A DNA stretch of 40,000 nt from Eubacteriales bacterium. Its GTDB lineage: Bacteria > Bacillota > Clostridia > Oscillospirales > CAG-382. The notes under the pieces were generated by a model. That model ran no database searches. It saw nothing but the letters and a program-made list of their open reading frames with translations, and was not told the origin of the DNA. Below, in pieces: positions 4,768-33,419 of this stretch (its first letter is position 1; each line of letters opens with the position of its first letter). The position numbers and the translations under genes were made by a program. The stretch spans positions 1 through 40,000 of the forward strand of contig JAZSIW010000009.1 in NCBI GenBank assembly GCA_045534025.1, written 5' to 3'.

Positions 4768-4768
4768 A

Positions 4769-5089: not shown

Positions 5090-5098
5090 ACGCGCCTC

Positions 5099-15805: not shown

Positions 15806-16729
15806 TTAATGAAGACCGGTGATGATAGCGGTAGCGTCAAGCTCCTCGATGATGGGGTCAAAGTCGAGGTGGGTTACATAGAAACGCTTATCAAGCATGA
15901 TAGCGTCCTTGCTTGCTGCGTCCTTGCGTATCTTTACTTCGTAGGTCTTAACGGATATAAGATTCTTAGGGTCGGTAAGAAGGATTATATCGTCGTCAAG
16001 AGAAGGGCAAGATACGGTGGGTATCTTTGCGGGAGCGCTGTAAACGGACTCGGGAACAGCGCCGCCTGCGTCGATAATCTTGTTAAGCAAATACTGTTCC
16101 CACTGCTGAGCTCTGCGAGGGGACATAATCCAACGGAGCTTGCCGTTGTTGTACTTGTTGGGAAGCGCTGCGAGTGCGCCATAGAAACAATCGAGGGTAA
16201 GGTCGCCGCCAATTTCTGCAGCGTTGAATACGTGACCGCCGTTTTTTATCTGTTTTACCCAACCATCGTTAATCTTGAGGAAGTCGTAGTCAGAGTCGGT
16301 GTCGGGTGTATCGGTGTCGCCGTTAAGCTGCAAGTCTTCCATGTCAAGACCGAGCTGAGTAGTCATAAGGTCGGTAATGGTAGCCTCAAGGTCCTCACCT
16401 TCAATGTTCTCACGCAGGGTTTCCTCGGTGATTTCCCAAGGAAGTCTTACTGCGGTAGTAGCGTACTCAACTGCGGAGAAGTTAACGGAAGCTCTGTGGC
16501 CGTCGTCAACATTCTCGGTCTTCTTTCTTACGATGCGGCTTGCGATGCCTATCTTGTCGATTTCGCCGGTCTTGGACTTGCGGATTTCGTGTCTGATAAG
16601 GCTGCCGAGGGTAGTGCTCTCAAATATCTGCTTGAGAAACTTTTTGGACTGTTCGGGGTTAAGCAAACCGCTTGTAACGGTTGCGGTAGAGATGGTTTCC
16701 TTTACAATCTGCTGATTAGTCATACTCAT
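15806..16729 (-). CDS. Major capsid protein
   Basis: 307 aa with a strong RBS AAAGGAGGAAAC. Located directly after the protease-scaffold gene. Composition is typical of major capsid proteins of Xkd-like phages. Confidence 0.8.
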   Translation of the reverse strand: MSMTNQQIVKETISTATVTSGLLNPEQSKKFLKQIFESTTLGSLIRHEIRKSKTGEIDKIGIASRIVRKKTENVDDGHRASVNFSAVEYATTAVRLPWEITEETLRENIEGEDLEATITDLMTTQLGLDMEDLQLNGDTDTPDTDSDYDFLKINDGWVKQIKNGGHVFNAAEIGGDLTLDCFYGALAALPNKYNNGKLRWIMSPRRAQQWEQYLLNKIIDAGGAVPESVYSAPAKIPTVSCPSLDDDIILLTDPKNLISVKTYEVKIRKDAASKDAIMLDKRFYVTHLDFDPIIEELDATAIITGLH

Positions 16730-16750
16730 TCTTGTTTCCTCCTTTTCAAA

Positions 16751-19133: not shown

Positions 19134-20711
19134 TCACTTGCCCTCCTCCCTCATTTTCAAGAGCAAGGAGCGTACTTCCTTCATAACGGCTACAACGCTG
19201 TCGTCCTTTGCTGCCGCCGCTTTTGCTATCTTTTTTTCAAGCTGTCCCACAACCATAGGCATAGACATATTCTGAGCCGCATTTTGAGCGTTTGCAACCA
19301 CGAGAGGCGTGTTGCCCCATTCGCCTTCAAACTCCTCAAAATCATCGCCAAGTGCGGAATATGCAATCTCCTTGGCCTTGTTGGGCGTGAGTCCGCCCGC
19401 CTTCTCCGCTATGGTAAGTATCTTGAACATATCGTCGGGGTTGGTTGTCTTCGGCTCCTTGAAGTACACCTCTACAAAACGGAAATTGTAACCGTTAAGC
19501 AAGCGGTTGTTGATAATCCACGCAAGGCTTTTGCGCTCCGGTTGGAATACTTGCTTCTCGGTTATCTCTTGCGCCGTCTGTGCTGTGGCACGGTTAAAGT
19601 CCGTTGTATAGCCTACATAGAGGTCGGGAAGGTTGAAAGCGGATTGGGCTCTGCGGCGGTTGTTGTCCAAATACTCTTGGAACAGTTCGTCCTTTTGCAA
19701 AATAGAGGCGAGGTCTTTTATCTCTACCTCTGCGGGCTTTTCTCCCTCGAATACCGCTGCGTTATCTGAGCTCTCTGTTTCAAGCACTATAAAAGCGTGT
19801 TGCCCTGCTTCGCCCTTGATGTCGTTCATATACTCGGTCAGCTTGGTGAACGAGTCCTCGGTGAGCGTGCCGCCTTTAAGAATTATCATCAGAGGCGTAT
19901 GCCTGCCGTTGCGGAAATAGTTGTTGTTAAGCTCCTCTGCACGTCGGCTCCCGTCTACGCCGAGTATCTGACCCGCCCATCGCACTTCTCCGTAAGGCTC
20001 GGTGCCTAACGCAAACTCCAACAGTTCGTTGGCTTGGTCTTTGAGGTCTAATTTTTCGCCGTCTGCAAGGTAATCGCCGCTATACTTATTCATAATACGG
20101 GGGTCGCCAAACTCCTTGAAATAGACGGTTTTGCTGCCTACCGTTTGGCGATATTTACGGAATTTGCGGTCGCGCTTCACTACCTTGCCCTTGTAGTTAA
20201 ACTCGGTGCTTATATAAGGCTCTAACAAGCGGGTCTTTTGTACCGACGGGATATCCTTTACGTACTCGATTTGCGCGACGTTCCCCTCAAGGTTGCGTAT
20301 GCACTCAAGGTACGCTATGCCGTAGGTTTCCCTGCCATCTATAATGTCCTTGAATATCTCCGTAGCGTCGCAATCGTAGTTAAGGAGGTCTATAATCTCC
20401 TCCGCCTGTGCGTACTCTGCCGCCATTTCGGAGGTTTCTTCTTCATCGACCTTATACCTCAAGCCGATGCCGAAGCCTGCTATGTTGTTTTTGTACGCTC
20501 TGATGCATTGAGGCAGAATGGAGGAGTTAAGCACAAACTTCTTCAAGCCTTGCAATTCAAAGTCGGGCGTTATCCATTCAGATGCCGACACAGCGGTTGC
20601 GCTGTCAAACTGCTCCGTTTTGTCTGATTTAAGCAAAGGTTGAGGGGCGGCGGCTCCTTTGATTATCTTAACCTCGTAGCCGGGCCTTTTCTTTAACGTC
20701 GCTTCCATCAC
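19134..20711 (-). CDS. Portal protein
   Basis: 525 aa. ATGA overlap with terL. Its position between terL and the gp7-like gene and its size are typical of portals. Confidence 0.8.
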   Translation of the reverse strand: MMEATLKKRPGYEVKIIKGAAAPQPLLKSDKTEQFDSATAVSASEWITPDFELQGLKKFVLNSSILPQCIRAYKNNIAGFGIGLRYKVDEEETSEMAAEYAQAEEIIDLLNYDCDATEIFKDIIDGRETYGIAYLECIRNLEGNVAQIEYVKDIPSVQKTRLLEPYISTEFNYKGKVVKRDRKFRKYRQTVGSKTVYFKEFGDPRIMNKYSGDYLADGEKLDLKDQANELLEFALGTEPYGEVRWAGQILGVDGSRRAEELNNNYFRNGRHTPLMIILKGGTLTEDSFTKLTEYMNDIKGEAGQHAFIVLETESSDNAAVFEGEKPAEVEIKDLASILQKDELFQEYLDNNRRRAQSAFNLPDLYVGYTTDFNRATAQTAQEITEKQVFQPERKSLAWIINNRLLNGYNFRFVEVYFKEPKTTNPDDMFKILTIAEKAGGLTPNKAKEIAYSALGDDFEEFEGEWGNTPLVVANAQNAAQNMSMPMVVGQLEKKIAKAAAAKDDSVVAVMKEVRSLLLKMREEGK

Positions 20712-22111
20712 TTCTTATCCCCTTTCTTTATTTCGTTTTTTATAGGGACGCATAACAAAAGAACGCAATCCGCCTCGTCGGGTGAAGGCAAATCGCGTTT
20801 CTTCATATCGTCTTTACTCTCTATTCGGATTTTGCTGTTTTCGGTAAGCCTATACTTTCTGCCCGAAAGTTGAGCTACCAAGTCATCGTCGTCCGGTAAT
20901 ATAAGCTCTACCGGTTTTGGCTTTCTTTCCTCGTCAAAAGGGGAAAGCAGGCTTTTAACCGTAGCCATCATATACGATGTGCTGTCGTGGTAATGTTTGT
21001 GCTTGATGCGCTGCCCAAATTTAATCGGCACTATGTTCATTTGTGTGAGGTTATCCGGGGCGTTTCTCTTTAGCTGTCTTAGCCTATCTACAACGCCACC
21101 GCCTACGCCGCCGTCGTCCACGCATACTGTAACGGCTCCTTTGTAGCCGGGGTAGCGCTTCAATAGGTCATAGTACAGTAACACTATATCGTCCGCCGTT
21201 TTCATTGTGTCTTGGCCGTGGCGCTTCTTATCAAGCGTTACCTTTTCGTCTACCTTGGAGCCTATTATAGTCTTATCGTCGCCAAATCTCGCAACGTCGC
21301 ACCCTATACGGATTGAATGTGGTACCGCCGCCGGTGTGTACTCTGTCATTATGGAGCGCTCAACAAGCGTTATCGGTATGAATACATCTGAGTTGCTAAG
21401 AGGAAAATCCCCCGCAACACGTACTCGGAATACGTCGCTATCCTCTCCGTACATTCGGATTATGGTGTCAATAAACTCTTGAGATACACGGCTGCTTTTC
21501 CTGCCGTCTATGTGGAATGTCTTGTATGACGCTCTGTTTTTGTTGTGGCTGTCGTAAAAGAAGCCGGAAAGCTGTGTAGGGTTTCCACACATTAAAAGCC
21601 TTGCGCCGGGCGTTGATAATGCACCAAGCACCGGCTCGAATATGTTATCTCTTACGCCGCTTGCTTCGTCGATGATGTAGAGAATATCGTCTGCGTGAAA
21701 GCCCTGTAAGGCGTCCGGCTTTGTTGCCGTTCTTGCTACCGCAAACCATTCCTCGGAATACCCCTTGAGGTATACTTTCTCACGGGTCCATACAAATTCT
21801 TTTTCAAGCGCCGGCGATTGCCTTAACCACTTGCTTACCTCCGCCCAAAGTATATCGAACAACTGATGCTGCGTCGGTGCCGTGCATGCTATTTTTGGGA
21901 ACGGCCTTGTAGACATAAACCATATAAGGGCCCACGCCTCAACAGCGCTCTTGCCTATACCGTGTCCGCTTCGTACCGATGTCATTGTGTTGTCGGCAAC
22001 ACTTTGCAGTATCTCCGCTTGCTGCGGGTCGGGCTTAATGCCTATGAGGTCTTCTACGAAATGAACGGGATTTTTAGCATAATACAGTATGGCGTCTTGA
22101 CTCAAACTCAT
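20708..22111 (-). CDS. terL: Terminase large subunit
   Basis: 467 aa. Walker A SGHGIGKS, Walker B ILYIIDEASG, and a C-terminal nuclease-like region. ATGA overlap with terS. Confidence 0.9.
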   Translation of the reverse strand: MSLSQDAILYYAKNPVHFVEDLIGIKPDPQQAEILQSVADNTMTSVRSGHGIGKSAVEAWALIWFMSTRPFPKIACTAPTQHQLFDILWAEVSKWLRQSPALEKEFVWTREKVYLKGYSEEWFAVARTATKPDALQGFHADDILYIIDEASGVRDNIFEPVLGALSTPGARLLMCGNPTQLSGFFYDSHNKNRASYKTFHIDGRKSSRVSQEFIDTIIRMYGEDSDVFRVRVAGDFPLSNSDVFIPITLVERSIMTEYTPAAVPHSIRIGCDVARFGDDKTIIGSKVDEKVTLDKKRHGQDTMKTADDIVLLYYDLLKRYPGYKGAVTVCVDDGGVGGGVVDRLRQLKRNAPDNLTQMNIVPIKFGQRIKHKHYHDSTSYMMATVKSLLSPFDEERKPKPVELILPDDDDLVAQLSGRKYRLTENSKIRIESKDDMKKRDLPSPDEADCVLLLCVPIKNEIKKGDKK

Positions 22112-22614
22112 TCGCCGTCCCCCTCCATTCTGTTTTTATATGCTGAAATAATGGTGTCAGCGAGGGATGCAGTTTGTCCGGGGCCGTTTTCGCCAAAGTC
22201 GGATATGCTCTCCTGCCTTGTTTCCTTTTCGAGCTTTGTTCCCAACGAAAGAAAGCGGGCTATATCTTTTGCCGACAAATACTTCAAACTGTCGAGGGCT
22301 TTTACCGCCTTTTTCTGCAAAAGCATCGCCGTTTGTATCTGCCTGTCTTGCATCTTTTTGATGGCGAGTTTCTTTTCTTCAAACTCTTGACGGCGCAAAT
22401 CGTTCTCGTAATCACGAACACGCTTCGGCCATTCCCACATACTGCTCCATCTGCCTATGAGTGCGTGGGATTTGTTCAACTGCTGTTCAACTTTTCGTAA
22501 AGTGCGCTCCCCGCCCATTTGGAGATACAAGTAAAAAGCTTCATAAGCCTGTGCGCTTTCGTTTGGCTGACGTTCCCAAGACAACAAATTCTTGCTCCCT
22601 TTAGCCTTTGCCAT
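22108..22614 (-). CDS. terS: Terminase small subunit
   Basis: 168 aa. N-terminal ESAQAYEAFYLYLQMGGERTLRKVEQQLNKSHALIGRWSSMWEWPKRV pattern (HTH) is common in Firmicutes phage small terminases. Located directly upstream of terL. Confidence 0.7.
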   Translation of the reverse strand: MAKAKGSKNLLSWERQPNESAQAYEAFYLYLQMGGERTLRKVEQQLNKSHALIGRWSSMWEWPKRVRDYENDLRRQEFEEKKLAIKKMQDRQIQTAMLLQKKAVKALDSLKYLSAKDIARFLSLGTKLEKETRQESISDFGENGPGQTASLADTIISAYKNRMEGDGE

Positions 22615-23905
22615 TATCCTCCTCTCCTTTTAGGGCGTATTTATAAACTATGTCGCCGTTTTCGTCTCTGCCAACGGGTCTGAGTATTCCTCCGTACCCT
22701 TTTGCCGGGCTTGTACCCTTGTTGGGGCTGTTCCAATTATCCCTAAGAAACTGCGACATTGTTGTATCATAATTTAACGCACGGTTTTTGTTGTTTCCCG
22801 TGTTGTAGCCTGCGGCTCCGACCCAGGGGAATGAAAAATATTTGTCGATGTTTTCTGAAATATCGGGCCATCGCACCTCTCCGTTTTCTCTTGCTGTTAT
22901 AATCGCTTGACCGAGGTTTCCCGTTTGGCTTACGTCCCATTCCGGTGGTACGCCGCAACAGTTACAAGCATCGTTGCATTCACGGCAAAAAGCGTCGCTA
23001 ACGTGGAAACGCATACCGAGGCTGTGGACGTATTCCCTCATATCGTGGATAATCGGTGCCTTTATGCCTCGGTTAAGCCTCTTGTAGCCATGTTGGGTGC
23101 TATTCTCCATATAGTATTTGTGTATGTCAAAACCACAAATCTTGCTCATTTCAGCGTATCGCTTCTTGAGGTTTTCGTCGGCTCTTGCTTCCATACAGAA
23201 AAACTCTGTCGTAACACTGTCGGCTCCGGCTTCGTGTGCCATTGATATAAGCTTCTTGTAATCCGAGGAAACTCCGAGGATAAACGGTCTAAGGCGTAGT
23301 GTTACGTGTATACCGATGTCTGAAAGCCTCTTTATTGCGGCTATCCTTTCTTCCGGTGAGGGCACGCCCTTTTCTATCCTTCGTGCCTTTTCTTTGTCTG
23401 CGGTTATTATGGAGATTTTAACGTGCCAATTATGGGTGTGTCTCTTGAACAGCTCCATATATCTTTCGTCGGCCGTCCACCAAGCAGCTTTTGTGCTAAA
23501 AGAAAGCGGGTAGTCTATTTTGTCGAAATACTTAAGAAGCTCCAACGTAACACCGTATCTACGCTCCCATTCGTCAAATTCGTCCGCAAGCCCTCCCCAT
23601 TGCATTATCCTGCGATTTTGGATATATGGGAAGAATTGTTGTTCCGTCTTAGTTACTCCCTCGGTATTGTTCAGCATAGCATTCTCAAATAAATTTATAA
23701 CCTTTTGAGGGTTTATGCAACGAGGTGCGCCGCCGCCTCCTATATAACCGTTTAATGTATGGCTTTTTTGGAAATAAGAAAAACAGTAAAGGCAGTTGTA
23801 AGCGCATTTGCTGTATGTGTCGAGGCTCATGGGCATCGAGCAATCGGGGATTTCCATGCTCCACCTTGGTGAGCTATAGTTTTGCTTTAATTGCTTTTCG
23901 TCCAT
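22601..23905 (-). CDS. Radical SAM enzyme, SplB/COG1533-like, 434 aa
   Basis: Start set to ATG 23905 (RBS TAGGAG overlapping the upstream stop). CX3CX2C cluster CAYNCLYC near the N-terminus and a C-terminal Cys cluster CRECNDACNCC. The 3' end overlaps the terS start by 14 nt. Confidence 0.8.
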   Translation of the reverse strand: MDEKQLKQNYSSPRWSMEIPDCSMPMSLDTYSKCAYNCLYCFSYFQKSHTLNGYIGGGGAPRCINPQKVINLFENAMLNNTEGVTKTEQQFFPYIQNRRIMQWGGLADEFDEWERRYGVTLELLKYFDKIDYPLSFSTKAAWWTADERYMELFKRHTHNWHVKISIITADKEKARRIEKGVPSPEERIAAIKRLSDIGIHVTLRLRPFILGVSSDYKKLISMAHEAGADSVTTEFFCMEARADENLKKRYAEMSKICGFDIHKYYMENSTQHGYKRLNRGIKAPIIHDMREYVHSLGMRFHVSDAFCRECNDACNCCGVPPEWDVSQTGNLGQAIITARENGEVRWPDISENIDKYFSFPWVGAAGYNTGNNKNRALNYDTTMSQFLRDNWNSPNKGTSPAKGYGGILRPVGRDENGDIVYKYALKGEEDNGKG

Positions 23906-23916
23906 GCTTTTTTCTC

Positions 23917-24501
23917 CTATTCGTCTATTCTTATAACTGTTGTTTGCGAACCTTCTTTTATCTGCCCGGTGAAGCCTTCGTCTTCGGCCCACCTCTCTGC
24001 ATAGAAGCTGTTTTCAAATACAAGGGTTACAACATAGCTGCCGCCTAAGATTTCTCCCTCGTATTCATCGTCCCACTCACCAAAGTCTGAGTCGTCTATG
24101 AGGTCCGAATTGTTGGCAAGTATAACGGCTATTTCGTCTTCCGAAAAGCCCGAAAGCGCTGCCACTTCGTAATCGAAGTCTTTTAATATCGCTTCCAACT
24201 TTTCGTAGTCCCATTGCCCCTTGATTTTGTTAAGCGCTACATTAAGCAGCTTTTCGTCTGTTTCGTCGAGGTCAACAACAGAGCAAGGGATTGTGTCGTA
24301 TCCTAAATGTTTCATAACGGCAAGGCGCTGATGGCCGCCTACTACGTTGCCCGTTCTTTTGTTCCAAACAATAGGCACCACATACCCTATTTCGGTGATG
24401 CTCCTTTCGAGCTTTTCCCACTCCGGCATCCCCGGTGCCAATTCTACACGGGGATTGTAAGGTGCTGCGTTAAGCTGCGCTATCTTAATTTCCTGTACCA
24501 T
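23917..24501 (-). CDS. ParB/Srx N-terminal domain protein (paralogue 2) with acidic linker and small C-terminal domain
   Basis: 194 aa. APYNPRV...VPIVWNKRTGNVVGGHQRLAV (ParBc-type core), then LNVALNKIKGQWDYEKLEAIL, an acidic stretch, and C-terminal YVVTLVFENSFYAERWAEDEGF. RBS GGAGGGG. Confidence 0.75.
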   Translation of the reverse strand: MVQEIKIAQLNAAPYNPRVELAPGMPEWEKLERSITEIGYVVPIVWNKRTGNVVGGHQRLAVMKHLGYDTIPCSVVDLDETDEKLLNVALNKIKGQWDYEKLEAILKDFDYEVAALSGFSEDEIAVILANNSDLIDDSDFGEWDDEYEGEILGGSYVVTLVFENSFYAERWAEDEGFTGQIKEGSQTTVIRIDE

Positions 24502-25099
24502 ACTCTGTCCCCTCCATCTTGATTGTTATGTTTCGGGCTGCGTCTTTGTATTCCGCCTCTACTCCTCTGTCTGTAAGCCACTTTTCGGCGGCTTCCTTTG
24601 TAGGAAAAGAAATAAACACGTGGAACGGCTTTTGACGCTCTACCGGCTCCGTTTCTTCGTCCGCGTCGTCGTCCGTTTCCTCGTAGTCATCCGTGTCGTA
24701 TTCTTCTTCACCGAACATACTTAAAAGTTCCTCCGCTGTAAAGCCGGTGTATTGTATGTCGTCGGCGTCTATTTCGTCAAAAAGCTCCTCCAATTTCTTG
24801 TAGTCCCATTCGCCGTCTATCTTGTTGATAGCGATATTAAGGAGCTTTTCTTGTTCTTCATCAACTTCTATAAGCACCACTTCCGCCTCCGTTTTTCCCT
24901 TATCTTTTAACACGGTGAGGCGTTGGTGCCCGCTTACGAGGTTTCCGGTGGTTTTGTTAAGCACTAAAGGCTCCACCAAATCAAATCGGTCAAGGCTGTT
25001 TTTCAAAGCCTCGTATTCGTCGTCGCCCGGTTTCAAAGCCTTTCGGGGGTTATAATCTGCCGGGCGGATATCTTCGAGTTTCATTATGGCGGTTTCCAT
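24485..25099 (-). CDS. ParB/Srx N-terminal domain protein (paralogue 1) with acidic linker and small C-terminal domain
   Basis: 204 aa. ADYNPRK...EPLVLNKTTGNLVSGHQRLTV, then LNIAINKIDGEWDYKKLEELF, the acidic run EYDTDDYEETDDDADEETE, and C-terminal FHVFISFPTKEAAEKWLTDRG. Confidence 0.75.
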   Translation of the reverse strand: METAIMKLEDIRPADYNPRKALKPGDDEYEALKNSLDRFDLVEPLVLNKTTGNLVSGHQRLTVLKDKGKTEAEVVLIEVDEEQEKLLNIAINKIDGEWDYKKLEELFDEIDADDIQYTGFTAEELLSMFGEEEYDTDDYEETDDDADEETEPVERQKPFHVFISFPTKEAAEKWLTDRGVEAEYKDAARNITIKMEGTEYGTGN

Positions 25100-25100
25100 A

Positions 25101-25862
25101 CTATTTAGCTCCTTTTCTTCGTTTTAGCTTTACGCTGTTTTCCTTTGAGGGGATAATCTCAAGTATGTCCCCGTGTTTTCTCTTGAGAAGCTTTAACATA
25201 TCGGTTTTGCGCTTCCACGCCTCTGCGCATCCTCCGTCTGCAAATCTGTCAATATCAGCGCAGGTGTCGTCTATGCTAACAAAAGCTCCGTAGCGTTTGA
25301 TTATTTGAGCACACATATCGGTATCTTGGAGGACAACAAAGTTGCGGTCAAATCGCAAATCCGTATTTATCAAGCCGTAAAAGCCCGTATCGCACAGTTT
25401 CCGTCTGTTATGGCCCGGCCGCATAAACATAGCGTTCCTTGTCATTGAAAGCCCAAAGCCAACCGTCTTTTCAAGCCTGCAAATTGCAAACCCTCTGCGG
25501 CAAAGAGTTAAAAGCTCTTCGAACTTTTGTACGTTAACGAGCTTTCGCTTCCCCGTTGCTTTATCTATCGTAAGGCGTTTTATCGCTTTTATGTCGTCTT
25601 CCAATATTACAATTTTTACGCCCTTTGAGTGGTAGTCTAAAAGCGTGTTAAAATTATCCGCAGCGCAACTCCCCCCCCGGTATAAGAAGGCGCCTACACG
25701 CTTGTTGACTCCTGCACGGGTGTACGCCTGCCGGTCCTCCTCTGTCTGCACGGAAAGAGATATCCAATCTTTCGGACATCCCATCGACTCAAGCAAATCG
25801 AGCGTTTTTTGGCGTCCGGCTCTTTTGTAGCTTGGTATGCAAAATAAAAATTCGGGCGTCAT
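25101..25862 (-). CDS. GT-A-fold-like transferase (paralogue 2)
   Basis: 253 aa. N-terminal FCIPSYKRAGRQ resembles the GT2 IPTYNR block. DxD-like IVILEDDI. C-terminal GGCAEAW is shared with the upstream paralogue. ATGA overlap with the upstream gene. Confidence 0.5.
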   Translation of the reverse strand: MTPEFLFCIPSYKRAGRQKTLDLLESMGCPKDWISLSVQTEEDRQAYTRAGVNKRVGAFLYRGGSCAADNFNTLLDYHSKGVKIVILEDDIKAIKRLTIDKATGKRKLVNVQKFEELLTLCRRGFAICRLEKTVGFGLSMTRNAMFMRPGHNRRKLCDTGFYGLINTDLRFDRNFVVLQDTDMCAQIIKRYGAFVSIDDTCADIDRFADGGCAEAWKRKTDMLKLLKRKHGDILEIIPSKENSVKLKRRKGAK

Positions 25863-26626
25863 TCTTTTTTCTTCTTTCTCAAATCTATTCTGTTGTTATC
25901 TCGCAATAGCACCCTTGCTTCGTGGGGCTTGTTTTTCTGTGGTGCTAAAATGTTTGGGTAAGCCTTGGAAAGTCTCTCTACGGTCTTTAAATTTTCGTCT
26001 GAGTGCCAAATTTCGTAGCAACCGCCTGCATTCGTCCGATGCTTTGCATTCGGGGCGAGAAAATTGTATCGCAACACTTCTCCGCCACCTTCGAGCACCC
26101 TTGCACACATTTCTATGTCTTCTTTTGTTTTGTAGCTTTCGTCGAACAACAGCTCATGCCCTTTTGTGAAGCCAATTACCGTGTTCACCGTAACCGTCGT
26201 CGATATGCTCGGCGACATAAAAAAAGCGTTATGCACGGGGTAAATCCCGAACAACGACGCTTTCCTCTTTTGTGCCATATTAAAGCACTTGTTTAGTAAT
26301 TCTGCGAACTCCTCGCGTGTATCGATGGGTACGAGTTTGTTTCCTCTAAGCTTCCCTATGCTTGAAACATCATCGTCAAACATAAGGATATTTGTGGCAC
26401 CCGAAAAATACCTCAGAGCGTTGTTCCTTGCTGCCGCTACTCCGTTTGCCGGGGTAAGGATTATGTTCGCCCTGTCTTCGTGCTTTTTGTAAGCCTCTCT
26501 GTCATTTGCGGTTTGCACAAAAATGTATATACGTTCTTTGGGTATTCCAAGCCCCGATAAATAATCAAGTGTTATCTGTTTTTCGGCTCTCCTGTATGAA
26601 GGTATTGCCATTACAAAGTTCTCCAT
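25859..26626 (-). CDS. GT-A-fold-like transferase (paralogue 1)
   Basis: 255 aa. RBS GAAGGAGGG. MAIPSYRRAEKQ, DxD-like ILMFDDDV, and C-terminal GGCYEIW. Confidence 0.5.
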   Translation of the reverse strand: MENFVMAIPSYRRAEKQITLDYLSGLGIPKERIYIFVQTANDREAYKKHEDRANIILTPANGVAAARNNALRYFSGATNILMFDDDVSSIGKLRGNKLVPIDTREEFAELLNKCFNMAQKRKASLFGIYPVHNAFFMSPSISTTVTVNTVIGFTKGHELLFDESYKTKEDIEMCARVLEGGGEVLRYNFLAPNAKHRTNAGGCYEIWHSDENLKTVERLSKAYPNILAPQKNKPHEARVLLRDNNRIDLRKKKKE

Positions 26627-27068
26627 TAGCTACCCTCCTTCTCAACTCTGTCGAGCTTAATCCGTGCGCCCTGCTATTATAATAAATTTCGATGCCGAGG
26701 TCCCTGCAGGCTTGCTTCCCGGTGAAATCTTTGTCTCTATAATCTTCCCCTACAAATCGTATGTCTATGGGGAGTGAGCGAATGGCTAACTCCAAGTCTG
26801 CCTCGCTTTCAAGTGGTACTACCTCATCTACGGCTCTGTGGCCCACAAGCTGGGCGTATCGTTCGAATACCGATTGTACGGGCTTGTTTTTGAACGGTCT
26901 GTCCGTAGTCGGGTCTGTTATTATGCCGACGTATAAATAGTCGCAGTACATTTTACATTCATCGAGCATCAACGAATGCCCTGCGTGTAACAAATCTCCT
27001 ACAACCGATGTGAAGCCGATAATTAACGGCTTTGCGCTTTTTTTGCTACTCGCTAAAGAGCTGTCCAT
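26565..27068 (-). CDS. Cytidylyltransferase-family nucleotidyltransferase (TagD/ECT/RfaE-II-like)
   Basis: 167 aa. GFTSVVGDLLHAGH carries the HxGH signature. Also YVGIITD and the C-terminal RAHGLSSTELRRRV (R..G.S[ST]T motif). Confidence 0.75.
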   Translation of the reverse strand: MDSSLASSKKSAKPLIIGFTSVVGDLLHAGHSLMLDECKMYCDYLYVGIITDPTTDRPFKNKPVQSVFERYAQLVGHRAVDEVVPLESEADLELAIRSLPIDIRFVGEDYRDKDFTGKQACRDLGIEIYYNSRAHGLSSTELRRRVANGELCNGNTFIQESRKTDNT

Positions 27069-28131
27069 TCTTATCTATCATCCCTTTTGCCATGGTTTTG
27101 ACTATCTGCTTCCCTTTTTCGTCTTTATATCTGTACAGCCTTATAATGTACATCAAGTGGAGCCCTACAACGATATCGTAAATGCCCCTGCGCTTGAGTA
27201 TGCAATCCAATGTTGCGAGGTATGCCGTGTTGTTTGCTTCACTTATGCCGAAAGCGTATTCGTATCCGCTAAGCGACATTCTAAGCTTAGCAAAATCTAA
27301 AAGGTAGCTTGAGCTTTCTCTAAAATAGCGTGGGTCTATGAAATAAAGCTGCCCATCGTCGCCTTTGATGATATTGCTTAATATCATATCGCCGTGAGAA
27401 TAGCTTGCGTGCCTGTGAAAAGCTTCTTTGTGATGTGTGATAAAACGCTTGCACAAATCTATTATCCCGTTCATTTCTTTGTCGCTGGAGTAATTGCCTT
27501 CCAAAATCTCAATATGCGGTGTTATGTCAAACGCTGCCTTCCTTCTCTTTGAAAACTCAAGGATAGTAAATAAGACTTTGGCAAAATCTTCGTCGGTAAA
27601 GCAGTCTACAAGGTTTTTCCCTTCTATGAAGTCCATATAAACTGCGTTGTATAGGCAAGAAATAACCCTCGGAAACTTGCATGCGCCGGCGTTATCTTCG
27701 ACCCATTCGCGAAAACGGGCGGTATCTTCTACGCTCCCAAGCATCTTTTTTACCGTTTTGCCGAGGCGGTATATAGGCTTGTTAGAGCCTCCTCCGTGTA
27801 ACATTCCAAAGGTACCGGAGTGGAAGTCTGCTAAGTTAACCGCTTTGTCGTCAACATACAAATCTCCGATGGGCTTGCCGAATATCAGTTCATCGCACGG
27901 CACATCGTGCTTTTTTAGCCACCTTATTATCTGCGCTCGATTGCGGGCCTCTATCAACGCTAAATCGCCGTTGCATGAAACCTGACCTCTTGCTGTGTGA
28001 ATGACTATCTCGCATCCATCCTCTTTGAGCTGCCGCATCTTCTCGACAGTTTCAAGAATGGGCGTAGCGTTCTCGTAATCACGATTTATGTGAGTGCTTA
28101 TGGTGTCGTCTAAATCAAATACTATGCGCAT
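27046..28131 (-). CDS. Fusion protein: small HAD-superfamily phosphatase (N-terminal) plus choline-kinase/APH-fold kinase (C-terminal)
   Basis: 361 aa. RBS GGAAGGAGAGG. HAD motif I VFDLDDT, motif II IHTAR, and motif III/IV GKPIGDLYVDDK. Kinase part has LHGGGSNKPIYRLGKTVKK, catalytic HGDMILSNII, and YFIDPRY. Confidence 0.7.
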   Translation of the reverse strand: MRIVFDLDDTISTHINRDYENATPILETVEKMRQLKEDGCEIVIHTARGQVSCNGDLALIEARNRAQIIRWLKKHDVPCDELIFGKPIGDLYVDDKAVNLADFHSGTFGMLHGGGSNKPIYRLGKTVKKMLGSVEDTARFREWVEDNAGACKFPRVISCLYNAVYMDFIEGKNLVDCFTDEDFAKVLFTILEFSKRRKAAFDITPHIEILEGNYSSDKEMNGIIDLCKRFITHHKEAFHRHASYSHGDMILSNIIKGDDGQLYFIDPRYFRESSSYLLDFAKLRMSLSGYEYAFGISEANNTAYLATLDCILKRRGIYDIVVGLHLMYIIRLYRYKDEKGKQIVKTMAKGMIDKNGQLFSE

Positions 28132-28160
28132 CGTTCCTCTCCTTCCTTTCGTTGATTTAA

Positions 28161-28198
28161 AGAAAAAACAGCCCTATCCGTAGATGGGCTGTTTTTTA
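28161..28198 (-). terminator. Strong intrinsic terminator in the leader of the late operon (bidirectional-looking)
   Basis: Minus strand reads AAAAAACAGCCCAUC-UACG-GAUAGGGCUGUUUUUUCU. The stem is 7+3 bp with one bulged A, with a tetraloop and a U6 tract. It ends ~30 nt before the RBS of the 28131 gene. Confidence 0.8.
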
Positions 28199-28252
28199 GG
28201 GGAACGTATGAAGAAAATATCAAAAACATATTTGCAATATTTTACATCATAT

Positions 28253-28281
28253 ATTCTACCACACTCTTTTTGCCTTGTAAA
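28253..28281 (-). promoter_or_regulatory. Sigma-A/sigma-70-type promoter: TTTACA - 17 nt - TGgTAGAAT
   Basis: Minus strand has a -35 TTTACA (28281-28276), a 17-nt spacer with an extended-10 TG (28261-28260), and a -10 TAGAAT (28258-28253). It lies in the 189-nt gap after the regulator gene. Confidence 0.6.
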
Positions 28282-28320
28282 TGCCCTGTTTTTGCCCCGA
28301 AACGGAGCACAACAGAGCTG

Positions 28321-28989
28321 CTAAAACTTTTCTATGCCGCAAATCCCGTACAAAAGGGAAGTGAGGCAGGAAACGGCGGCGTCTATGTCCTTGTATACTG
28401 TGCGCTTGTCTATATGCTCCGTGTTGGCTATGCTCTGCGCCGTGGTAGGGATTTCGTCAAGGTACATCGCCTTGAGTATGCGGTAGTGCCTTTTGTCGTC
28501 CTCTCGGTTGGAACGTTCACACATAAGAGCGTAAACATCAAGCATACGGTTAACGTGGGTCATTATTATCTTTGTGCGTACCGTGGAGCTTTTTATGGCC
28601 TCCACGCTAAAATTATCTTCGTAGCCCTTGCTTGACATCATTTCCATAATGTCGATAAAGCTTTCGTCTACTTCTTCCGCCTGTTCTATTTCAAAAATGG
28701 CGTTATTAAAGTGTTCGTTGAGGTGCCTATAGTTCTGCATAAGGAGCTTCGTATTGTGGTATCTGCGGTCATATTGACGCTCTCGGAGCTTCTTTTTCTC
28801 ACGCTCTATAGATTTAATAGCCGCTTTAGCTCCTACCTCTGCACCTACCGCCGCACCGATTTGTGTGCCAAGAGTAATGGCCGCTTTAAGCTTTTCGTCG
28901 ATGTTTTTGTTTGCTACGTCATAAGCTGCGATAACGGCTGCCTTGATTATTTCCTCGATTTCAAGCCCCGTCCTGTTGTTTGTTCCCAT
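28321..28989 (-). CDS. Putative late-gene transcriptional regulator (ArpU/RinA/sigma region-4-like C-terminus)
   Basis: 222 aa. RBS GAGGAGGTG. Central RRYHNTKLLMQNYRHLNEH and C-terminal HTH-like YRILKAMYLDEIPTTAQSIANTEHIDKRTVYKDIDAAV. It is the last gene before the late promoter. Confidence 0.45.
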   Translation of the reverse strand: MGTNNRTGLEIEEIIKAAVIAAYDVANKNIDEKLKAAITLGTQIGAAVGAEVGAKAAIKSIEREKKKLRERQYDRRYHNTKLLMQNYRHLNEHFNNAIFEIEQAEEVDESFIDIMEMMSSKGYEDNFSVEAIKSSTVRTKIIMTHVNRMLDVYALMCERSNREDDKRHYRILKAMYLDEIPTTAQSIANTEHIDKRTVYKDIDAAVSCLTSLLYGICGIEKF

Positions 28990-30495: not shown

Positions 30496-30792
30496 TCACC
30501 CCCAATCCAAAGCCTGTCCGCAGTCCGGGCAGTAAGCACAGCCCCAATTATTGATACCGTACTCAAAGTCGCCGTTACCGCAGTTCGGGCATTTGGCGTT
30601 ATCGTAGATGAGGTTTCCGTCCTCGTCGTAGCCGTCGCCCCAAAATTCGGGTGGTTGCGGTATTTGTTTTAAGATAGCCTTTCTTCCGATTTCGCAAGCC
30701 TCGTTTACAGGCTCAATACTCTCGTAGTGTTCGCGGTGCGTCGGGTCAAGGATTTCGGCGGCTCTTTCGAGCATCATTTCCTGTTTGCTCAT
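30496..30792 (-). CDS. Small zinc-ribbon protein
   Basis: 98 aa. CPNCGNG...CAYCPDCG (two CxxC pairs). Confidence 0.55.
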   Translation of the reverse strand: MSKQEMMLERAAEILDPTHREHYESIEPVNEACEIGRKAILKQIPQPPEFWGDGYDEDGNLIYDNAKCPNCGNGDFEYGINNWGCAYCPDCGQALDWG

Positions 30793-31193
30793 GCACCCAC
30801 CTCCTCAATGGCTTTTATGACCTCCGCTGTGGTCTGTCCTTTTTTTATTCCTACCATAATTGCGGGCGGTGTCGGCATTTCTGCCGCGATAGGCCGCCAA
30901 AGGTGAAGGCAATTAGGGATGTTATTTACATATTCGCTCTTTGCCGGGTGATACTGTACTACGGTTTCATTTTCTCTGAAAAACATATCTTTCAGCTTGC
31001 ACATATCGTCCCATGACGGCGTTATCTTCCTGTTGCACGGTGCTACGCTAACGTGTTCCCAACCTCCGCCGTTGCTCCATATTACCGTAGCCCAACGTTT
31101 ACCGGCTTGAAATATCACTCCGCACCCGCCGTCGGGAGCGGTCCGGGCGATAAGTAAATTCGGTATGTTTTTGAGTTCTTCGTTTGTCTTCAT
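30789..31193 (-). CDS. Conserved phage protein of unknown function
   Basis: 134 aa. GGGWEHVSVAP...PSWDDMCKLKDMFF...VVQYHPAKSEYVNN.PNCLHLWRP is a pattern I recognise from many phage early regions. Function unknown. Confidence 0.55.
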   Translation of the reverse strand: MKTNEELKNIPNLLIARTAPDGGCGVIFQAGKRWATVIWSNGGGWEHVSVAPCNRKITPSWDDMCKLKDMFFRENETVVQYHPAKSEYVNNIPNCLHLWRPIAAEMPTPPAIMVGIKKGQTTAEVIKAIEEVGA

Positions 31194-31885
31194 TTAGCTG
31201 CCTCCATTTCTGCCCGTAGGGACTCTTTGATGTAGTAGTTGAGTCCAAGCTGCCGACAAAGCGTTTCGGCTCTCCTGCCAAAGTCCGCCCAATCAATGTT
31301 GGATTTGTGATAGTTCAGTTTGCCGATTTTGACCTTATCGACAATCGGTGCTACCAAGTGTAGGTTGATGAAAAACTCTCTATCATCGGTTACGGGCTCG
31401 AATGATACCCAAGTCTTTATGCCGAGGCTGTGCGCCTGTGCGAGAGCGTCAACCCTTGCTTTCCATTGCGGGTTTCTGCCGTTGCCAATACCGTCGAGGG
31501 TTATGCCGTACCAATCCTCCGGACCGAGCAAATCAAAATCACGGCTGCCGTCGCCTTTGGTGAGGATTTGCACGTTATTACCGGTGCTTTTCAGTAGGGA
31601 GATTATCTCGCGTGTTACGGTGGTGTCGTAACCGTGAGGGTATGGGTCGCAAGTAAAACAAAGGTGTATAAGCTTCCCTTTGATGCCCTCATGCTCTATC
31701 TGCTTCCGTGTTTCTTCGACGATGTTCGGCTTTGGCTCTACAACGCTATGGAATTTTTCTCTGTCTTTATGTAAGACATTGGGCGCAAAGCAGTAATAGC
31801 ATCTATGAGGGCACCCCGTGTATATGTTTATTGCGTAGTCTCCGTATTCTTTTGCTTTGCCCTTTGGTATGTAAATAGGCTTCAT
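31190..31885 (-). CDS. Radical SAM enzyme, short SplB/COG1533-like, 231 aa
   Basis: INIYTGCPHRCYYCFAPN carries CX3CX2C in the context N.Y.GC.H.C.YC typical of COG1533 'DNA repair photolyase'-type radical SAM proteins. Confidence 0.75.
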   Translation of the reverse strand: MKPIYIPKGKAKEYGDYAINIYTGCPHRCYYCFAPNVLHKDREKFHSVVEPKPNIVEETRKQIEHEGIKGKLIHLCFTCDPYPHGYDTTVTREIISLLKSTGNNVQILTKGDGSRDFDLLGPEDWYGITLDGIGNGRNPQWKARVDALAQAHSLGIKTWVSFEPVTDDREFFINLHLVAPIVDKVKIGKLNYHKSNIDWADFGRRAETLCRQLGLNYYIKESLRAEMEAAK

Positions 31886-32314: not shown

Positions 32315-33109
32315 CTAATGTTTGTCTAATTGACTTATAAGTCCTTGCAACGGGAAATTCATCCAAAGCTTTTCTGTTCTGTGTAATCCCATTTGCGCCG
32401 TTGTATCAATTAAATCCGTGTACCACCCATCAAGCATAGAGTTATATAATTCGCTGTCGTATCCGCTAATAACGACTTTTGCGTTGCTGTTAAGCAAGGC
32501 GCCCAAAAGGTCCCTATGCTTTTCTTCGGACATTTCGCAAGCATACATATTTCTTTTCCGCAAACTTGGCAGATACGGGGGGTCACAATATATAAGCGTA
32601 TCCGAGCTGTTGTATCGCCTAATAAGCTCAATGGCATCTATTCTTTCTATTTGGGCATCTTTAAGCCGCATACAGCAACTTTGTATAATCTGCGGCAAAT
32701 CATTCCACATAGTTGCACATCGAGGACCGCCATAGGTTTGTACATTGCGCCAGCTCCTTTTACTGCTGTTGCTTGTTCCAAAAGATTGATGATACCGCAC
32801 CAATGTCCTCCGAGCCTGCTCAACCGGGTCTACAGAACGGTGGTAGCACTCTTCAAATTCTTGCCGGCTGAACGGAGTAAGGCTTATTGCTCTTGCAAGT
32901 GCATCGGGCTGTTCTCTGCACACTTGAAACAAATTCACAATGTCGCCGTCAATATCGTTTATCGTTTCTATATAGGTTGGGGTCTTTTGAAAAAACACGC
33001 CGCCCGACCCAAAGAAAGGCTCTAAATAAACCTTGTGTTCGGGGAAATGCGATATTATCCATTGTGCTATGCGCCACTTTGCGCCGGGATACTTAAGAAT
33101 TGCTTTCAT
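32315..33109 (-). CDS. dam: Dam-family (D12 class) N6-adenine DNA methyltransferase
   Basis: Start set to ATG 33109 (RBS AAGGAG). LKYPGAKWRIAQWI, motif I EPFFGSGGVFF, motif IV LIYCDPPYL. Confidence 0.85.
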   Translation of the reverse strand: MKAILKYPGAKWRIAQWIISHFPEHKVYLEPFFGSGGVFFQKTPTYIETINDIDGDIVNLFQVCREQPDALARAISLTPFSRQEFEECYHRSVDPVEQARRTLVRYHQSFGTSNSSKRSWRNVQTYGGPRCATMWNDLPQIIQSCCMRLKDAQIERIDAIELIRRYNSSDTLIYCDPPYLPSLRKRNMYACEMSEEKHRDLLGALLNSNAKVVISGYDSELYNSMLDGWYTDLIDTTAQMGLHRTEKLWMNFPLQGLISQLDKH

Positions 33110-33419
33110 TTTGCATCTCCTTATGCTGTAGTTCGCCGTAACTGCAATAATCATTTGGGTCAAGTCCGTCAGTCATAAAATAAGAACACACAATATCATC
33201 TCCCGAATAGTCGGTAATATCCAATGGGTCTTTTTCCATATTTGCCACATTAAATTTACAATCTTTACACCTTACCACTTCCACAACATCTGCGGTGGGT
33301 ATCTTTGAAAGGTTGGGAGAATACTCTTCTCCGTGGTCGCAATAAGTATTACAACCGCTGTTACTATGATGTCGGCAAGTCTCACATTTGCCTAAATATT
33401 TTGTGTCAATATAGGGCAT
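33093..33419 (-). CDS. Small Cys-rich protein (paralogue B)
   Basis: 108 aa. CETCRHH..GCNTYCDHG, VVRCKDCKF, NDYCSYGE. Confidence 0.55.
   Translation of the reverse strand: MPYIDTKYLGKCETCRHHSNSGCNTYCDHGEEYSPNLSKIPTADVVEVVRCKDCKFNVANMEKDPLDITDYSGDDIVCSYFMTDGLDPNDYCSYGELQHKEMQNESNS

Follow-up and report, generated by a model that had tools for sequence, protein, structure and literature searches.

Two adjacent genes of a siphovirus of gut Clostridia, which we refer to as GT1 and GT2, are added members of a known phage DNA glycosyltransferase family (TAGT), and we judge it somewhat better than an even bet that they act as the transferases of a seven-gene DNA hypermodification cassette, expressed late, in which a radical SAM enzyme (rSAM) makes the acceptor. 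We find that the two genes are paralogous, fall within the TAGT family and lie in a tight operon, that GT1 has a GT-A fold, and that the cassette is conserved across phage backbones; the best reading of this arrangement is a DNA glycosylation cassette fed by a phage-made NDP-sugar, of which the activity is inferred only and the sugar and target base (T or C) are unassigned. The window referred to below is the whole stretch of DNA that was analyzed, 40 kb of a 56,958-bp contig, and a ThyS homolog or dioxygenase in the remaining 17 kb or so, or elsewhere, is not excluded.

GT1 (25859..26626, minus strand, 255 aa) and GT2 (25101..25862, minus strand, 253 aa) share a 4-nt ATGA overlap, and a BLASTP comparison of the pair gave 69/233 identities (30%, E 3e-30), a similarity far above chance that marks them, on sequence grounds, as paralogs. 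When a profile of GT2 relatives was compared with one of GT1 relatives by hhalign, the match extended over 244 columns (probability 100%, E 1.9e-74). An earlier note, made from the DNA letters alone, had described the two ORFs as diverged tandem paralogs with four blocks in common and without a transmembrane segment, and all of this holds: the blocks AIPSYRRA, FVQTANDREAY, FDDDV and GGCYEIW of GT1 correspond to CIPSYKRA, SVQTEEDRQAY, LEDDI and GGCAEAW of GT2, these are the best-conserved columns in an alignment of 28 family members, and no TM-like segment was found, the maximum 19-residue Kyte-Doolittle means being 1.12 for GT1 and 0.66 for GT2. Twelve positions are invariant among the 28 members (P9, S10, R13, Q38, T39, D42, Y46, D85, D86, D170, G202 and W207). 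The R...DDD...ED(Y/F) active-site motif is complete in GT1 (R13, D84-D86, E169-D170), and GT2 is the diverged partner, having EDD for DDD, LSMTRNAMFM for YPVHNAFFM and LQDTD for KEDIE, such that the Arg is kept, Q-D replaces E-D and the invariant Asp is retained.

TAGT is said to have been defined by Iyer et al. in 2013. GT1 matches the Pfam family (PF20691) with 52.8 bits, well over the cut-off of 27.5, and PHROG 842, a beta-glucosyl-HMC-alpha-glucosyltransferase, at 1e-22, and all but one of the 36 GT1 homologs listed carry PF20691. GT2 on its own remains under the cut-off (18.2 bits), and it joins the family by profile comparison, since 14/15 members of its own family match PF20691 and its homology to GT1 extends over the whole length. 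The family takes in the T2/T6 beta-glucosyl-HMC-alpha-GT (PMC13216743), its enzymes characterized to date act on 5hmC derivatives (PMC13216743; bioRxiv 10.1101/2023.12.21.572611), and the active-site motif given above is common to phage GT-A DNA glycosyltransferases, JGT and TarP (bioRxiv 10.1101/2023.12.21.572611). A PDB sequence search with GT1 yielded no meaningful match; its AlphaFold model (pLDDT 91.7, pTM 0.89) confidently predicts a GT-A fold, with top PDB matches that are all GT-A enzymes (WrtF, TarS, TarP and RmlT; E 4e-7 to 4e-6) and that agree at fold level only (TM about 0.5, 12-17% identity), compared with TM 0.72-0.85 for viral TAGT proteins, including a beta-glucosyl-HMC-alpha-glucosyltransferase. 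For GT2 a GT-A fold is inferred from homology. The note's assignment of both proteins to GT-A enzymes, which a non-transferase fold or clear orthology to wall-polymer glycosyltransferases would have refuted, is thereby supported, as the predicted fold is that of a transferase and no such orthology was found for TarS, TarP or RmlT. Its suggestion that DNA is a plausible acceptor also gains support from the family and from the setting, because the neighbors are ParB-like proteins, a DNA-type radical SAM enzyme and a terminase, which speaks for DNA rather than wall polymers, with transfer to DNA itself still an inference.

The order of genes is HAD-phosphatase/kinase, nucleotidyltransferase, GT1, GT2, two ParB-like proteins, radical SAM enzyme and terminase, and from 28131 to 20708 they overlap or stand 1-11 nt apart. 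The first gene (27046..28131, minus strand) encodes a small HAD phosphatase (residues 1-108) fused to an APH/choline-kinase-like kinase (roughly 150-361), with a below-cut-off match to the EcbF/BcbF capsule phosphatase model (NCBIfam TIGR01689, 83.7 bits), a match to PHROG 1238 at 4.5e-21 and only weak Choline_kinase/TCAD9 matches; in a related locus (L002) phosphatase and kinase are encoded separately. The second (26565..27068, minus strand) encodes a cytidylyltransferase-like, HIGH-motif nucleotidyltransferase nearest to HldE domain II and TagD, above the cut-off of 21 for PF01467 (39.2 bits) and below cut-off for TIGR02199 rfaE_dom_II (59.4 bits) and TIGR01518 (46 bits). We propose that the fusion carries out the two opening steps in making the NDP-sugar donor and that the second product is a sugar-1-phosphate nucleotidyltransferase, the trio of kinase, HAD and nucleotidyltransferase being a documented phage route to UDP-Araf (PMC13326640). 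Homologs of both donor genes occur in the cultured Agathobaculum phage AB434P2 (gp4, 44.6% identity over 99% of the fusion; gp5, 73.5% identical to the nucleotidyltransferase), where they sit beside a ThyS-family 'deoxyuridylate hydroxymethyltransferase', and phage S-CBWM1 combines Tet_JBP, GT, HAD, nucleotidyltransferase and APH kinase. In AB434P2 the donor genes and the ThyS homolog flank gp6, which was considered as a TAGT and rejected (hhalign probability 1.9%, no Pfam match).

Translationally contiguous with the cassette at its other end are TerS (22108-22614) and TerL (20708-22111), together 20708..22614 on the minus strand, which serve as context only and have no modification role; the NCBIfam TerS match is weak (21.8 bits), and TerL homologs with Terminase_6N/6C trail the cassette in related loci. 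The cassette is retained across differing portal and terminase types. One caution is that a hot spot for DNA-modification genes may account in part for its constant site just before terS. In the sole intergenic gap upstream of the cassette (28132-28320) there is a promoter-like site, TTTACA-17-TAGAAT with TG (28253..28281, minus strand), and this is only a positional hint, since a scan of the region for promoters and terminators gave no signal above chance (13 promoter-like sites vs 10.4 expected from shuffling). A 10-kb megablast query had no match among GenBank phages. The window also holds genes for an SSB, RecU and a DnaC-like loader, with no polymerase or nucleotide-metabolism genes in its 40 kb, and its methyltransferases are of the N6-adenine type only, without a C5-MTase. 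Two related loci (L001 and L002) have a PF00145 C5-methyltransferase 5-10 kb upstream.

Of the ParB-like proteins, ParBa (24485..25099, minus strand, 204 aa) consists of a ParB N-terminal domain, an acidic linker and a small C-terminal domain, and at about 200 aa is shorter than chromosomal ParBs; it falls below the cut-off for PF02195 (20.5 bits), matches PHROG 620 at 1e-38 and is 26% identical (E 8e-9) to gp60 of Arthrobacter phage Altadena, a ParB encoded beside a Tet-like JBP. ParBb (23917..24501, minus strand, 194 aa) is its paralog (35% identity, E 2e-40) and lies above the PF02195 cut-off of 26.3 (29.9 bits). The pair is kept in most rSAM cassettes, and the idea that the ParB duplication mirrors that of the GTs was dropped, as the pair is present with 0, 1 or 2 GTs. 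ParB is known to activate a subclass of phage T-dioxygenases (PMC13229309).

The seventh gene (22601..23905, minus strand; 434 aa from a likely ATG at 23905, with the ORF reaching a GTG at 23992) encodes a spore-photoproduct-lyase (SPL)-like rSAM with a CX3CX2C motif, whose C34, C38 and C41 are invariant in the alignment, and a conserved C-terminal Cys cluster (C307-C317; FCRECNDACNCCG). It matches PF04055 at 29.8 bits and remains far from the cut-offs of the NCBIfam models PA0069 (71 bits, cut-off 360) and Rv2578c (48 bits, cut-off 430), so that, as far as sequence can tell, it is a family separate from these, set apart by its extra conserved Cys cluster and counting 2088 homologs. A PDB sequence search gave no meaningful match, and its structural model (pLDDT 78.9) is closest to SPL, an enzyme that acts on DNA (4fhg/4fhc/4k9r, E 5e-6, TM (target) 0.55). 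Its kinship to gp53 of Pseudomonas phage M6 is only remote (hhalign probability 77.7%, E 1.9e-5), a tblastn search of M6 with the rSAM found no match, and no ADDT or PLP gene was detected in the window, so by orthology and co-occurrence it is not a gp53-type glycinyl-thymine isomerase. It must be cautioned that this distant relative works after the transferase rather than before it (PMC8989533).

The comparison of about 140 related loci (22 ascertained by the GT and 122 by the rSAM), read only to +/-6-10 kb, bears on the placing of the rSAM upstream of the sugar transfer. Among the GT-ascertained loci the rSAM is present in 10/22 and Tet_JBP in 10/22, and the two are never found together (0/22); among the rSAM-ascertained loci a TAGT GT occurs in 43/122, a P-loop kinase and/or PF18724 amino-acid:DNA transferase in 64/122 and neither in 15/122, with Tet_JBP in 0/122 and a TAGT GT together with the kinase/PF18724 set likewise in 0/122. 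The P-loop kinase and the amino-acid:DNA transferase are enzymes known to act on 5-hydroxymethyluracil. No Tet_JBP or ThyS homolog was found in any rSAM locus or in a six-frame translation of the 40-kb window (E<=10), and Pfam scans of the window's ORFs were likewise without TET/JBP or hydroxymethylase. The Tet_JBP HMM was built from four sequences and used in place of single-sequence phmmer seeds, which had missed the true Tet_JBP of L016, and the ThyS HMM, built from two seeds only, is weak. Fusions exist in both orders (TAGT-rSAM in P0177 and P0178; rSAM-TAGT in P0187, P0192 and P0198; kinase-rSAM-TAGT in P0194), with the proviso that some metagenomic 'fusions' may be gene-calling artefacts, and many distant rSAM loci are without a recognized partner. 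Orthologs of the GT1 type (at least 48% identity) come with donor genes in 15/15 representatives, and no GT2 ortholog (at least 46% identity) was found in a locus without GT1 and the donor genes. The hosts of the rSAM loci are anaerobes of the gut and rumen, among them Selenomonas ruminantium S137, whose prophage (NZ_FNJQ01000002.1) has the rSAM-ParB core, and the cultured phages with Tet_JBP-linked homologs infect Mycobacterium, Arthrobacter and Synechococcus. A role of the mycobacteriophage homologs in virion glycosylation was considered and rejected, as their locus consists of ParB, Tet_JBP, GT, deacetylase, kinase and terminase genes.

Taken together, the pathway we propose would begin with the HAD/APH-like kinase fusion and the HIGH-motif nucleotidyltransferase, which would make a dedicated NDP-sugar from a sugar phosphate of the host (sugar-x-P to 1,x-bisphosphate to sugar-1-P to NDP-sugar). 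With help from the two ParB-like proteins, the SPL-like rSAM would generate the acceptor in a post-replicative step that needs no O2, and this acceptor would be a hydroxymethylated pyrimidine of the phage DNA, with 5-hydroxymethyluracil the likeliest; the rSAM holds the place of the ParB-dependent TET/JBP thymine dioxygenases in related loci, those of phages with aerobic hosts included, and post-replicative rather than pre-replicative modification fits the set of replication genes in view, with its SSB, RecU and loader and its lack of polymerase and nucleotide-metabolism genes. Oxygen-free formation of the acceptor by the ParB-assisted rSAM remains an inference for which there is no proof and no chemistry data, and we know of no precedent for radical SAM hydroxylation of a DNA base. 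A plausible chemistry would have the 5'-deoxyadenosyl radical take H from the C5-methyl, after which the extra Cys-ligated cluster would mediate a one-electron oxidation and water would be captured. GT1 would then attach the phage-made sugar to the base, and GT2, whose acceptor-side motif is altered, may add a second sugar or modify a subset of sites; the finding of GT2 orthologs only with GT1 and donor genes favors a second, sequential addition over simple redundancy, although this too stays an inference. The modified DNA would be packaged and protected from host nucleases. The more specific proposal that the rSAM and its two ParB-like partners form an O2-independent thymine C5-methyl hydroxylase on double-stranded DNA, an anaerobic counterpart of JBP/TET that yields base-J-like glycosylated hydroxymethyluracil here and leads to amino-acid hypermodification in sister cassettes, we hold tentatively, at slightly less than even chances.

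Of the competing explanations, the one that survives best, though we consider it unlikely, is that the GTs do act on DNA, on a hydroxymethyl acceptor made by a ThyS-type enzyme or dioxygenase encoded outside the window by the genome or host, and that the rSAM tailors the product afterwards or is unrelated. It draws on M6 gp53, an SPL-like rSAM that isomerizes an adduct already on thymine (PMC8989533) and to which our rSAM is remotely akin, on the unseen part of the contig and on AB434P2, which pairs the same donor genes with a ThyS homolog. However, a tailoring enzyme should follow one adduct type, and the rSAM does not, being constant whether sugar transferases, kinase/amino-acid transferases or neither accompany it; in another related locus (L095) a member of the present rSAM family stands alongside a gp53 ortholog (43% identity, E 3e-120); Tet_JBP and ThyS went undetected in every rSAM locus and in the 40-kb window; and the replication genes in view fit post-replicative modification. 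More doubtful still is the possibility that the rSAM makes its acceptor on another base or position, for example on 5-methylcytosine from a host or phage C5-methyltransferase to give 5hmC, with no base-J-like thymine, as the C5-methyltransferases of L001 and L002 and the action of characterized TAGT enzymes on 5hmC derivatives would allow; yet our window has no such methyltransferase, the sister rSAM loci carry enzymes of the thymine pathway, namely a 5-hmdU-type kinase and amino-acid:DNA transferases, and association with ParB marks the T-dioxygenase subclass (PMC13229309). Virion proteins are glycosylated in some mycobacteriophages and the prophage enzyme TarP glycosylates teichoic acid, but we give very little credence to a non-DNA acceptor (virion proteins or host wall polymers) with incidental nearness to ParB, rSAM and terminase, since the PDB matches to wall-polymer enzymes (TarS, TarP, RmlT) and the O-antigen enzyme WrtF are far weaker than those to viral TAGTs, the other points in its favor amount to faint NCBIfam EpsD/MftF matches and a HAD domain similar to capsule-biosynthesis phosphatases, the GTs are without a membrane or acceptor-binding extension or TM segment, every homolog with readable context adjoins Tet_JBP or a DNA-type rSAM (the mycobacteriophage one included), and TAGT-rSAM fusions exist.

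If the glycosylation pathway with its rSAM-made acceptor is correct, its importance lies in the setting and not in the GT pair alone. The routes known to us for placing a hydroxymethyl handle for DNA glycosylation are either pre-replicative, through thymidylate-synthase homologs, or require O2, through TET/JBP, and the habitat of gut and rumen phages is free of O2. The mutual exclusivity of TET/JBP and rSAM, the TAGT-rSAM fusions and the pairing of the rSAM with 5-hmdU-type kinases or amino-acid:DNA transferases make this a concrete and testable candidate for an O2-independent route. The architecture of the pathway appears to be undescribed, and our full-text literature search found no description of an rSAM-TAGT association, a search that did not cover Iyer et al. 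2013 (NAR 41:7635), where a mention is possible. If true, it would represent a new reaction type for radical SAM chemistry on DNA, account for DNA protection in many gut phages, draw attention to a type of modified DNA by which virome sequencing and methods based on restriction may be biased, and provide an enzyme for anaerobic installation of 5hmU.

With the wall teichoic acid GT-A enzymes TarP (prophage-encoded) and TarS, our pair shares only the catalytic fold, as GT1 and GT2 are without oligomerization or acceptor domains and wall-polymer genes are absent nearby. The donor module resembles the UDP-arabinofuranose pathway of RB69/DLP3/HY126 (PMC13326640) and ADP-heptose synthesis (HldE/GmhB) in its APH-type anomeric kinase, small HAD phosphatase and sugar-1-P nucleotidyltransferase supplying a DNA glycosyltransferase, but differs in having no phosphosugar isomerase, a fused HAD and kinase, an unidentified sugar and a nucleotidyltransferase of the HIGH-motif (HldE-II/TagD) rather than the MurU/RmlA-like type. 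M6 gp53, the sole radical SAM enzyme we found reported to install a DNA modification (PMC8989533), shares the SPL-like fold and works on the C5-methyl position of thymine; unlike the present rSAM, it occurs strictly together with an amino-acid transferase and a PLP enzyme, and the kinship is remote. The PF20691 TAGT systems (the T2/T6 enzyme and the phage MT/5mYOX cluster GT-A of Pyle et al.) have in common with ours the family, the GT-A fold, the R...DDD...ED motif and a size of about 250 aa, are soluble, adjoin ParB and terminase genes and sometimes include two GTs in succession, and what distinguishes the present cassette is its rSAM, with no TET/JBP or ThyS homolog detected, its dedicated donor-synthesis module and its strictly anaerobic hosts. 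Alike in proposed logic, namely post-replicative C5-methyl hydroxylation on DNA followed by glycosylation or other derivatization, are the ParB-dependent thymine dioxygenase pathways (5mYOX with ParB and a GT or kinase/AADT; PMC13229309) and kinetoplastid base J (JBP with JGT). Unlike the dioxygenase pathways, our cassette has an SPL-like rSAM in place of an Fe(II)/2-oxoglutarate dioxygenase, two ParB paralogs rather than one, and a first step whose chemistry is inferred, and it shares with them a site by the terminase and accessory sets that comprise ParB, GT, P-loop kinase, amino-acid:DNA transferase and GATase.

The two tandem open reading frames that the earlier note had paired by eye as diverged GT-A-like transferases are indeed present, GT1 (25859-26626, -, 255 aa) and GT2 (25101-25862, -, 253 aa) sharing an ATGA overlap and aligning over 233 residues with 30% identity (E 3e-30); when 28 relatives are aligned, conservation peaks in its four motif blocks, and, as it had said of membrane segments, neither protein has a hydrophobic stretch of membrane-span length. 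The GT-A assignment held in profile and structure searches alike: GT1 scores 52.8 bits (cut-off 27.5) against PF20691, the Pfam family of TET-associated glycosyltransferases (TAGT), and 1e-22 against PHROG 842 ('beta-glucosyl-HMC-alpha-glucosyltransferase'), and its confident AlphaFold model (28-sequence input, pLDDT 91.7, pTM 0.89) matches only GT-A enzymes in the PDB (WrtF, TarS, TarP and RmlT; E 4e-7 to 4e-6, TM ~0.5), the same pattern that Pyle et al. obtained for phage GT-A DNA glycosyltransferases (bioRxiv 10.1101/2023.12.21.572611). Among predicted viral structures the model retrieves TAGT-domain proteins (TM 0.72-0.85), one of them the beta-glucosyl-HMC-alpha-glucosyltransferase of a Klebsiella phage, and the T2/T6 enzyme that places a second glucose on glucosyl-5hmC is itself a PF20691 member with a predicted GT-A fold, sister to the glycosyltransferase GT2 family (PMC13216743; PMC13390438). 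GT1 also carries the R...DDD...ED motif (R13, D84-D86, E169-D170) aligned across phage GT-A enzymes, the base-J glucosyltransferase and TarP (bioRxiv 10.1101/2023.12.21.572611). GT2 alone stays under the PF20691 cut-off (18.2 bits), 14 of its 15 relatives match, and its family profile matches that of GT1 at E 1.9e-74; it retains the arginine, the DXD as EDD and the invariant equivalent of Asp170, with LSMTRNAMFM for YPVHNAFFM and LQDTD for KEDIE. Both are TAGT-family members, with the GT-A fold demonstrated for GT1, and the DNA acceptor suggested by the earlier note gains support: we consider it very probable, by inference from computation alone, that they are DNA glycosyltransferases.

Nearly all transcription in the window is on the minus strand, and it resembles a siphovirus or prophage in which terminase, portal and structural genes lie past a replication/recombination module (DnaC-like loader, SSB, RecU) and two N6-adenine DNA methyltransferases (32315-33163, -, and 36195-38036, -; one of the D12/Dam class, one a 613-aa DUF4942 fusion). 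Two related cassettes (L001, L002) have a PF00145 gene, for a C5-cytosine methyltransferase, 5-10 kb upstream; the window lacks one. The GTs sit in an operon running from 28131 down to 20708, its genes overlapping or spaced by 1-11 nt, in the order HAD-phosphatase/APH-like-kinase fusion (27046-28131, -), HIGH-motif nucleotidyltransferase (26565-27068, -), GT1, GT2, the ParB-like paralogs ParBa (24485-25099, -) and ParBb (23917-24501, -; 35% identity, E 2e-40), a radical SAM enzyme (rSAM, 22601-23905, -) and the terminase small and large subunits. Since the genes follow one another in this way also in an Oscillospiraceae MAG and human-gut contigs with differing portal/terminase types, the cassette behaves as a module and not as backbone synteny. 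Directly upstream, in a position kept in many related phages with or without GTs, is a 222-aa PHROG 1558 protein (28321-28989, -) with a weak C-terminal HTH_11, perhaps a regulator of late genes. A small radical SAM protein, the window's second (31190-31885, -, 231 aa), has PA0069/Rv2578c-like and weak 'rSAM mobile pair' matches; after it comes a DUF7694 protein (30789-31193, -), a family repeatedly found upstream of rSAM cassettes (e.g. L022, L027, L047, L121). A 526-aa plus-strand ORF (15809-17389, +), opposite minus-strand capsid-region genes, is probably a non-coding shadow.

Neither a TET/JBP dioxygenase (Tet_JBP) nor a thymidylate-synthase (ThyS) homolog was found by Pfam scans of the window's ORFs and an HMM search of its six-frame translation, these HMMs being built on few seeds and ~17 kb of the source contig, with most of each related genome, lying outside the analysed sequence. 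What accompanies the GTs is rSAM, which has a CX3CX2C motif and an additional conserved Cys cluster FCRECNDACNCCG, weakly resembles the PA0069 and Rv2578c families, and has spore photoproduct lyase (SPL) as the top structural match of its model (pLDDT 78.9; E 5e-6). SPL uses radical SAM chemistry at the thymine methyl position in DNA. A word-seeded search returned 2088 homologs, with 215 clusters (50% identity) at E<1e-30; genome records assign the family to gut and rumen members of Clostridia, Lachnospiraceae, Oscillospiraceae, Selenomonas ruminantium, Prevotella, Bacteroidales and Victivallales, and no close relative was found among GenBank phage records. Many members (P0180, P0193, P0202, P0204, P0210, P0228, P0266, P0272, P0275, P0284) have ~300 additional residues splitting or preceding the profile match, often within or just past CX3CX2C, which look like inteins judging from the sequences without a domain search, and P0190 is fused to an FkbM-type methyltransferase.

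We collected 170 related loci using conserved peptides as bait, which favours close relatives, called their ORFs mechanically and scored them by HMMs for GT, rSAM, ParB, donor genes, Tet_JBP, P-loop kinase and amino-acid:DNA transferase; co-occurrence, mutual exclusion and fusion are all observed. Among the 22 distinct loci ascertained through a GT, rSAM is present in 10, Tet_JBP in 10 (Pfam-confirmed in 3 of them), neither in 2 and both in none. Tet_JBP-linked examples are the Arthrobacter phage Altadena locus (ParB, Tet-like JBP, GT, deacetylase) and a cluster-B mycobacteriophage locus (ParB, Tet_JBP, GT, deacetylase, P-loop kinase, terminase). In Mycobacterium phage Indlovu (MW055906.1, L173), gp2 (809-1687) matches the Tet_JBP HMM at 1e-42 and is annotated 'queuine tRNA-ribosyltransferase', and gp5 (3045-3611) matches a 5-hmdU-kinase-like P-loop kinase HMM at 2e-16 and is annotated 'adenylate kinase', labels that are probably misannotations common to cluster-B mycobacteriophages. 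When loci are ascertained through rSAM (n=122 distinct), 43 hold a TAGT-type GT, 64 a P-loop kinase and/or PF18724 amino-acid:DNA transferase, sometimes joined by a GNAT or glutamine amidotransferase, and 15 neither; GT and kinase/transferase occur together in 0 of 122, and the HMM search found Tet_JBP in 0 of 122. These variable partners belong to enzyme types that are known to act on the 5-hydroxymethyluracil hydroxyl. An identical accessory set has been reported near the ParB-dependent phage thymine dioxygenases, for which ParB is needed to oxidise double-stranded DNA (PMC13229309), and because rSAM loci share it, rSAM, usually with the ParB pair, behaves as if it supplied one precursor to them all. 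The domains are also fused, as TAGT-rSAM (P0177, P0178 and, more weakly, P0199), rSAM-TAGT (P0187, P0192, P0198) and P-loop kinase-rSAM-TAGT (P0194), with TAGT scores of 45-91 bits, some possibly being assembly or gene-calling artefacts.

On the donor side, the kinase/phosphatase/nucleotidyltransferase logic is that of ADP-heptose synthesis (HldE/GmhB). It is likewise that of the phage UDP-arabinofuranose route, in which an APH-type kinase, a small HAD phosphatase and a sugar-1-phosphate nucleotidyltransferase serve DNA arabinosylation (Ara5P -> Ara1,5P2 -> Ara1P -> UDP-Araf; PMC13326640). The best scores of the window's nucleotidyltransferase (HldE domain II, 59 bits; TagD, 46 bits) are both under cut-off, so the sugar is unidentified. 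Two cultured phages have such a donor module adjoining enzymes that make hydroxymethyl-pyrimidine DNA. Agathobaculum phage AB434P2, whose host is a strict anaerobe and whose donor pair is closely homologous to the window's two proteins (44.6% and 73.5% identity), has these genes beside a dTMP-kinase-like gene, a ThyS-family protein annotated deoxyuridylate hydroxymethyltransferase and a Pol III alpha of its own; Synechococcus phage S-CBWM1 encodes consecutively a Tet_JBP-domain protein, GT1 homolog, HAD phosphatase, glucose-1-P thymidylyltransferase and APH kinase. In the S-CBWM1 run (L030, 3729-7921) the Tet_JBP domain (65.5 bits) belongs to gp8, whose annotation is SNF2 repair protein, with the TAGT-like GT next, and the prediction for this phage is glycosylation of hydroxymethylated DNA with a sugar of its own making. 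In AB434P2 (L171, OP172633.1), 328- and 361-aa proteins (2850-3836 and 4497-5582) on either side of the ThyS homolog match no Pfam family, do not resemble TAGT and could represent a DNA transferase not yet described.

We propose that the HAD-kinase fusion and nucleotidyltransferase would turn a host sugar phosphate into a dedicated NDP-sugar, and that rSAM, with ParBa and ParBb, may oxidise a C5-methyl in replicated phage DNA without O2, thymine being the likely target since the window lacks a C5-methyltransferase and sister loci hold thymine-pathway enzymes. The chemistry would likely be hydrogen abstraction, oxidation via the second cluster and water capture; pairs such as BchE/AcsF are precedents for anaerobic radical SAM counterparts of oxygenases. 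GT1, whose orthologs are accompanied by donor genes in 15 of 15 cases and not always by GT2, would then place the phage-made sugar on the resulting hydroxyl. GT2, whose orthologs were found only beside GT1 and donor genes and which is altered in its acceptor-side motifs, might attach a second sugar, as the T6 TAGT lengthens a sugar already on DNA, or serve a subset of sites. That the GTs act in one pathway with rSAM seems likely to us; that rSAM itself makes the acceptor is at best an even bet.

GT1 and GT2 are new members of an already known family, and TAGT GTs and a donor module joined with an SPL-like rSAM and ParB pair, not with TET/JBP, were undescribed in a full-text literature search whose reach excluded the founding TAGT paper; should rSAM be shown to hydroxylate DNA, this would be a new enzyme activity. 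The known DNA-modifying radical SAM enzyme, M6 gp53, isomerises glycinyl-thymine once a transferase has acted (PMC8989533), and is only a remote relative of the rSAM family (hhalign E 1.9e-5). One viral contig (L095, 1735-7320) carries a ParB, P-loop kinase, PLP enzyme, a clear ortholog of gp53 (43% identity, E 3e-120), an amino-acid:DNA transferase and an rSAM-family member, two distinct SPL-like enzymes within a single DNA-modification cluster. Given this remoteness and coexistence, the window's rSAM family does not look like one with gp53-type function.
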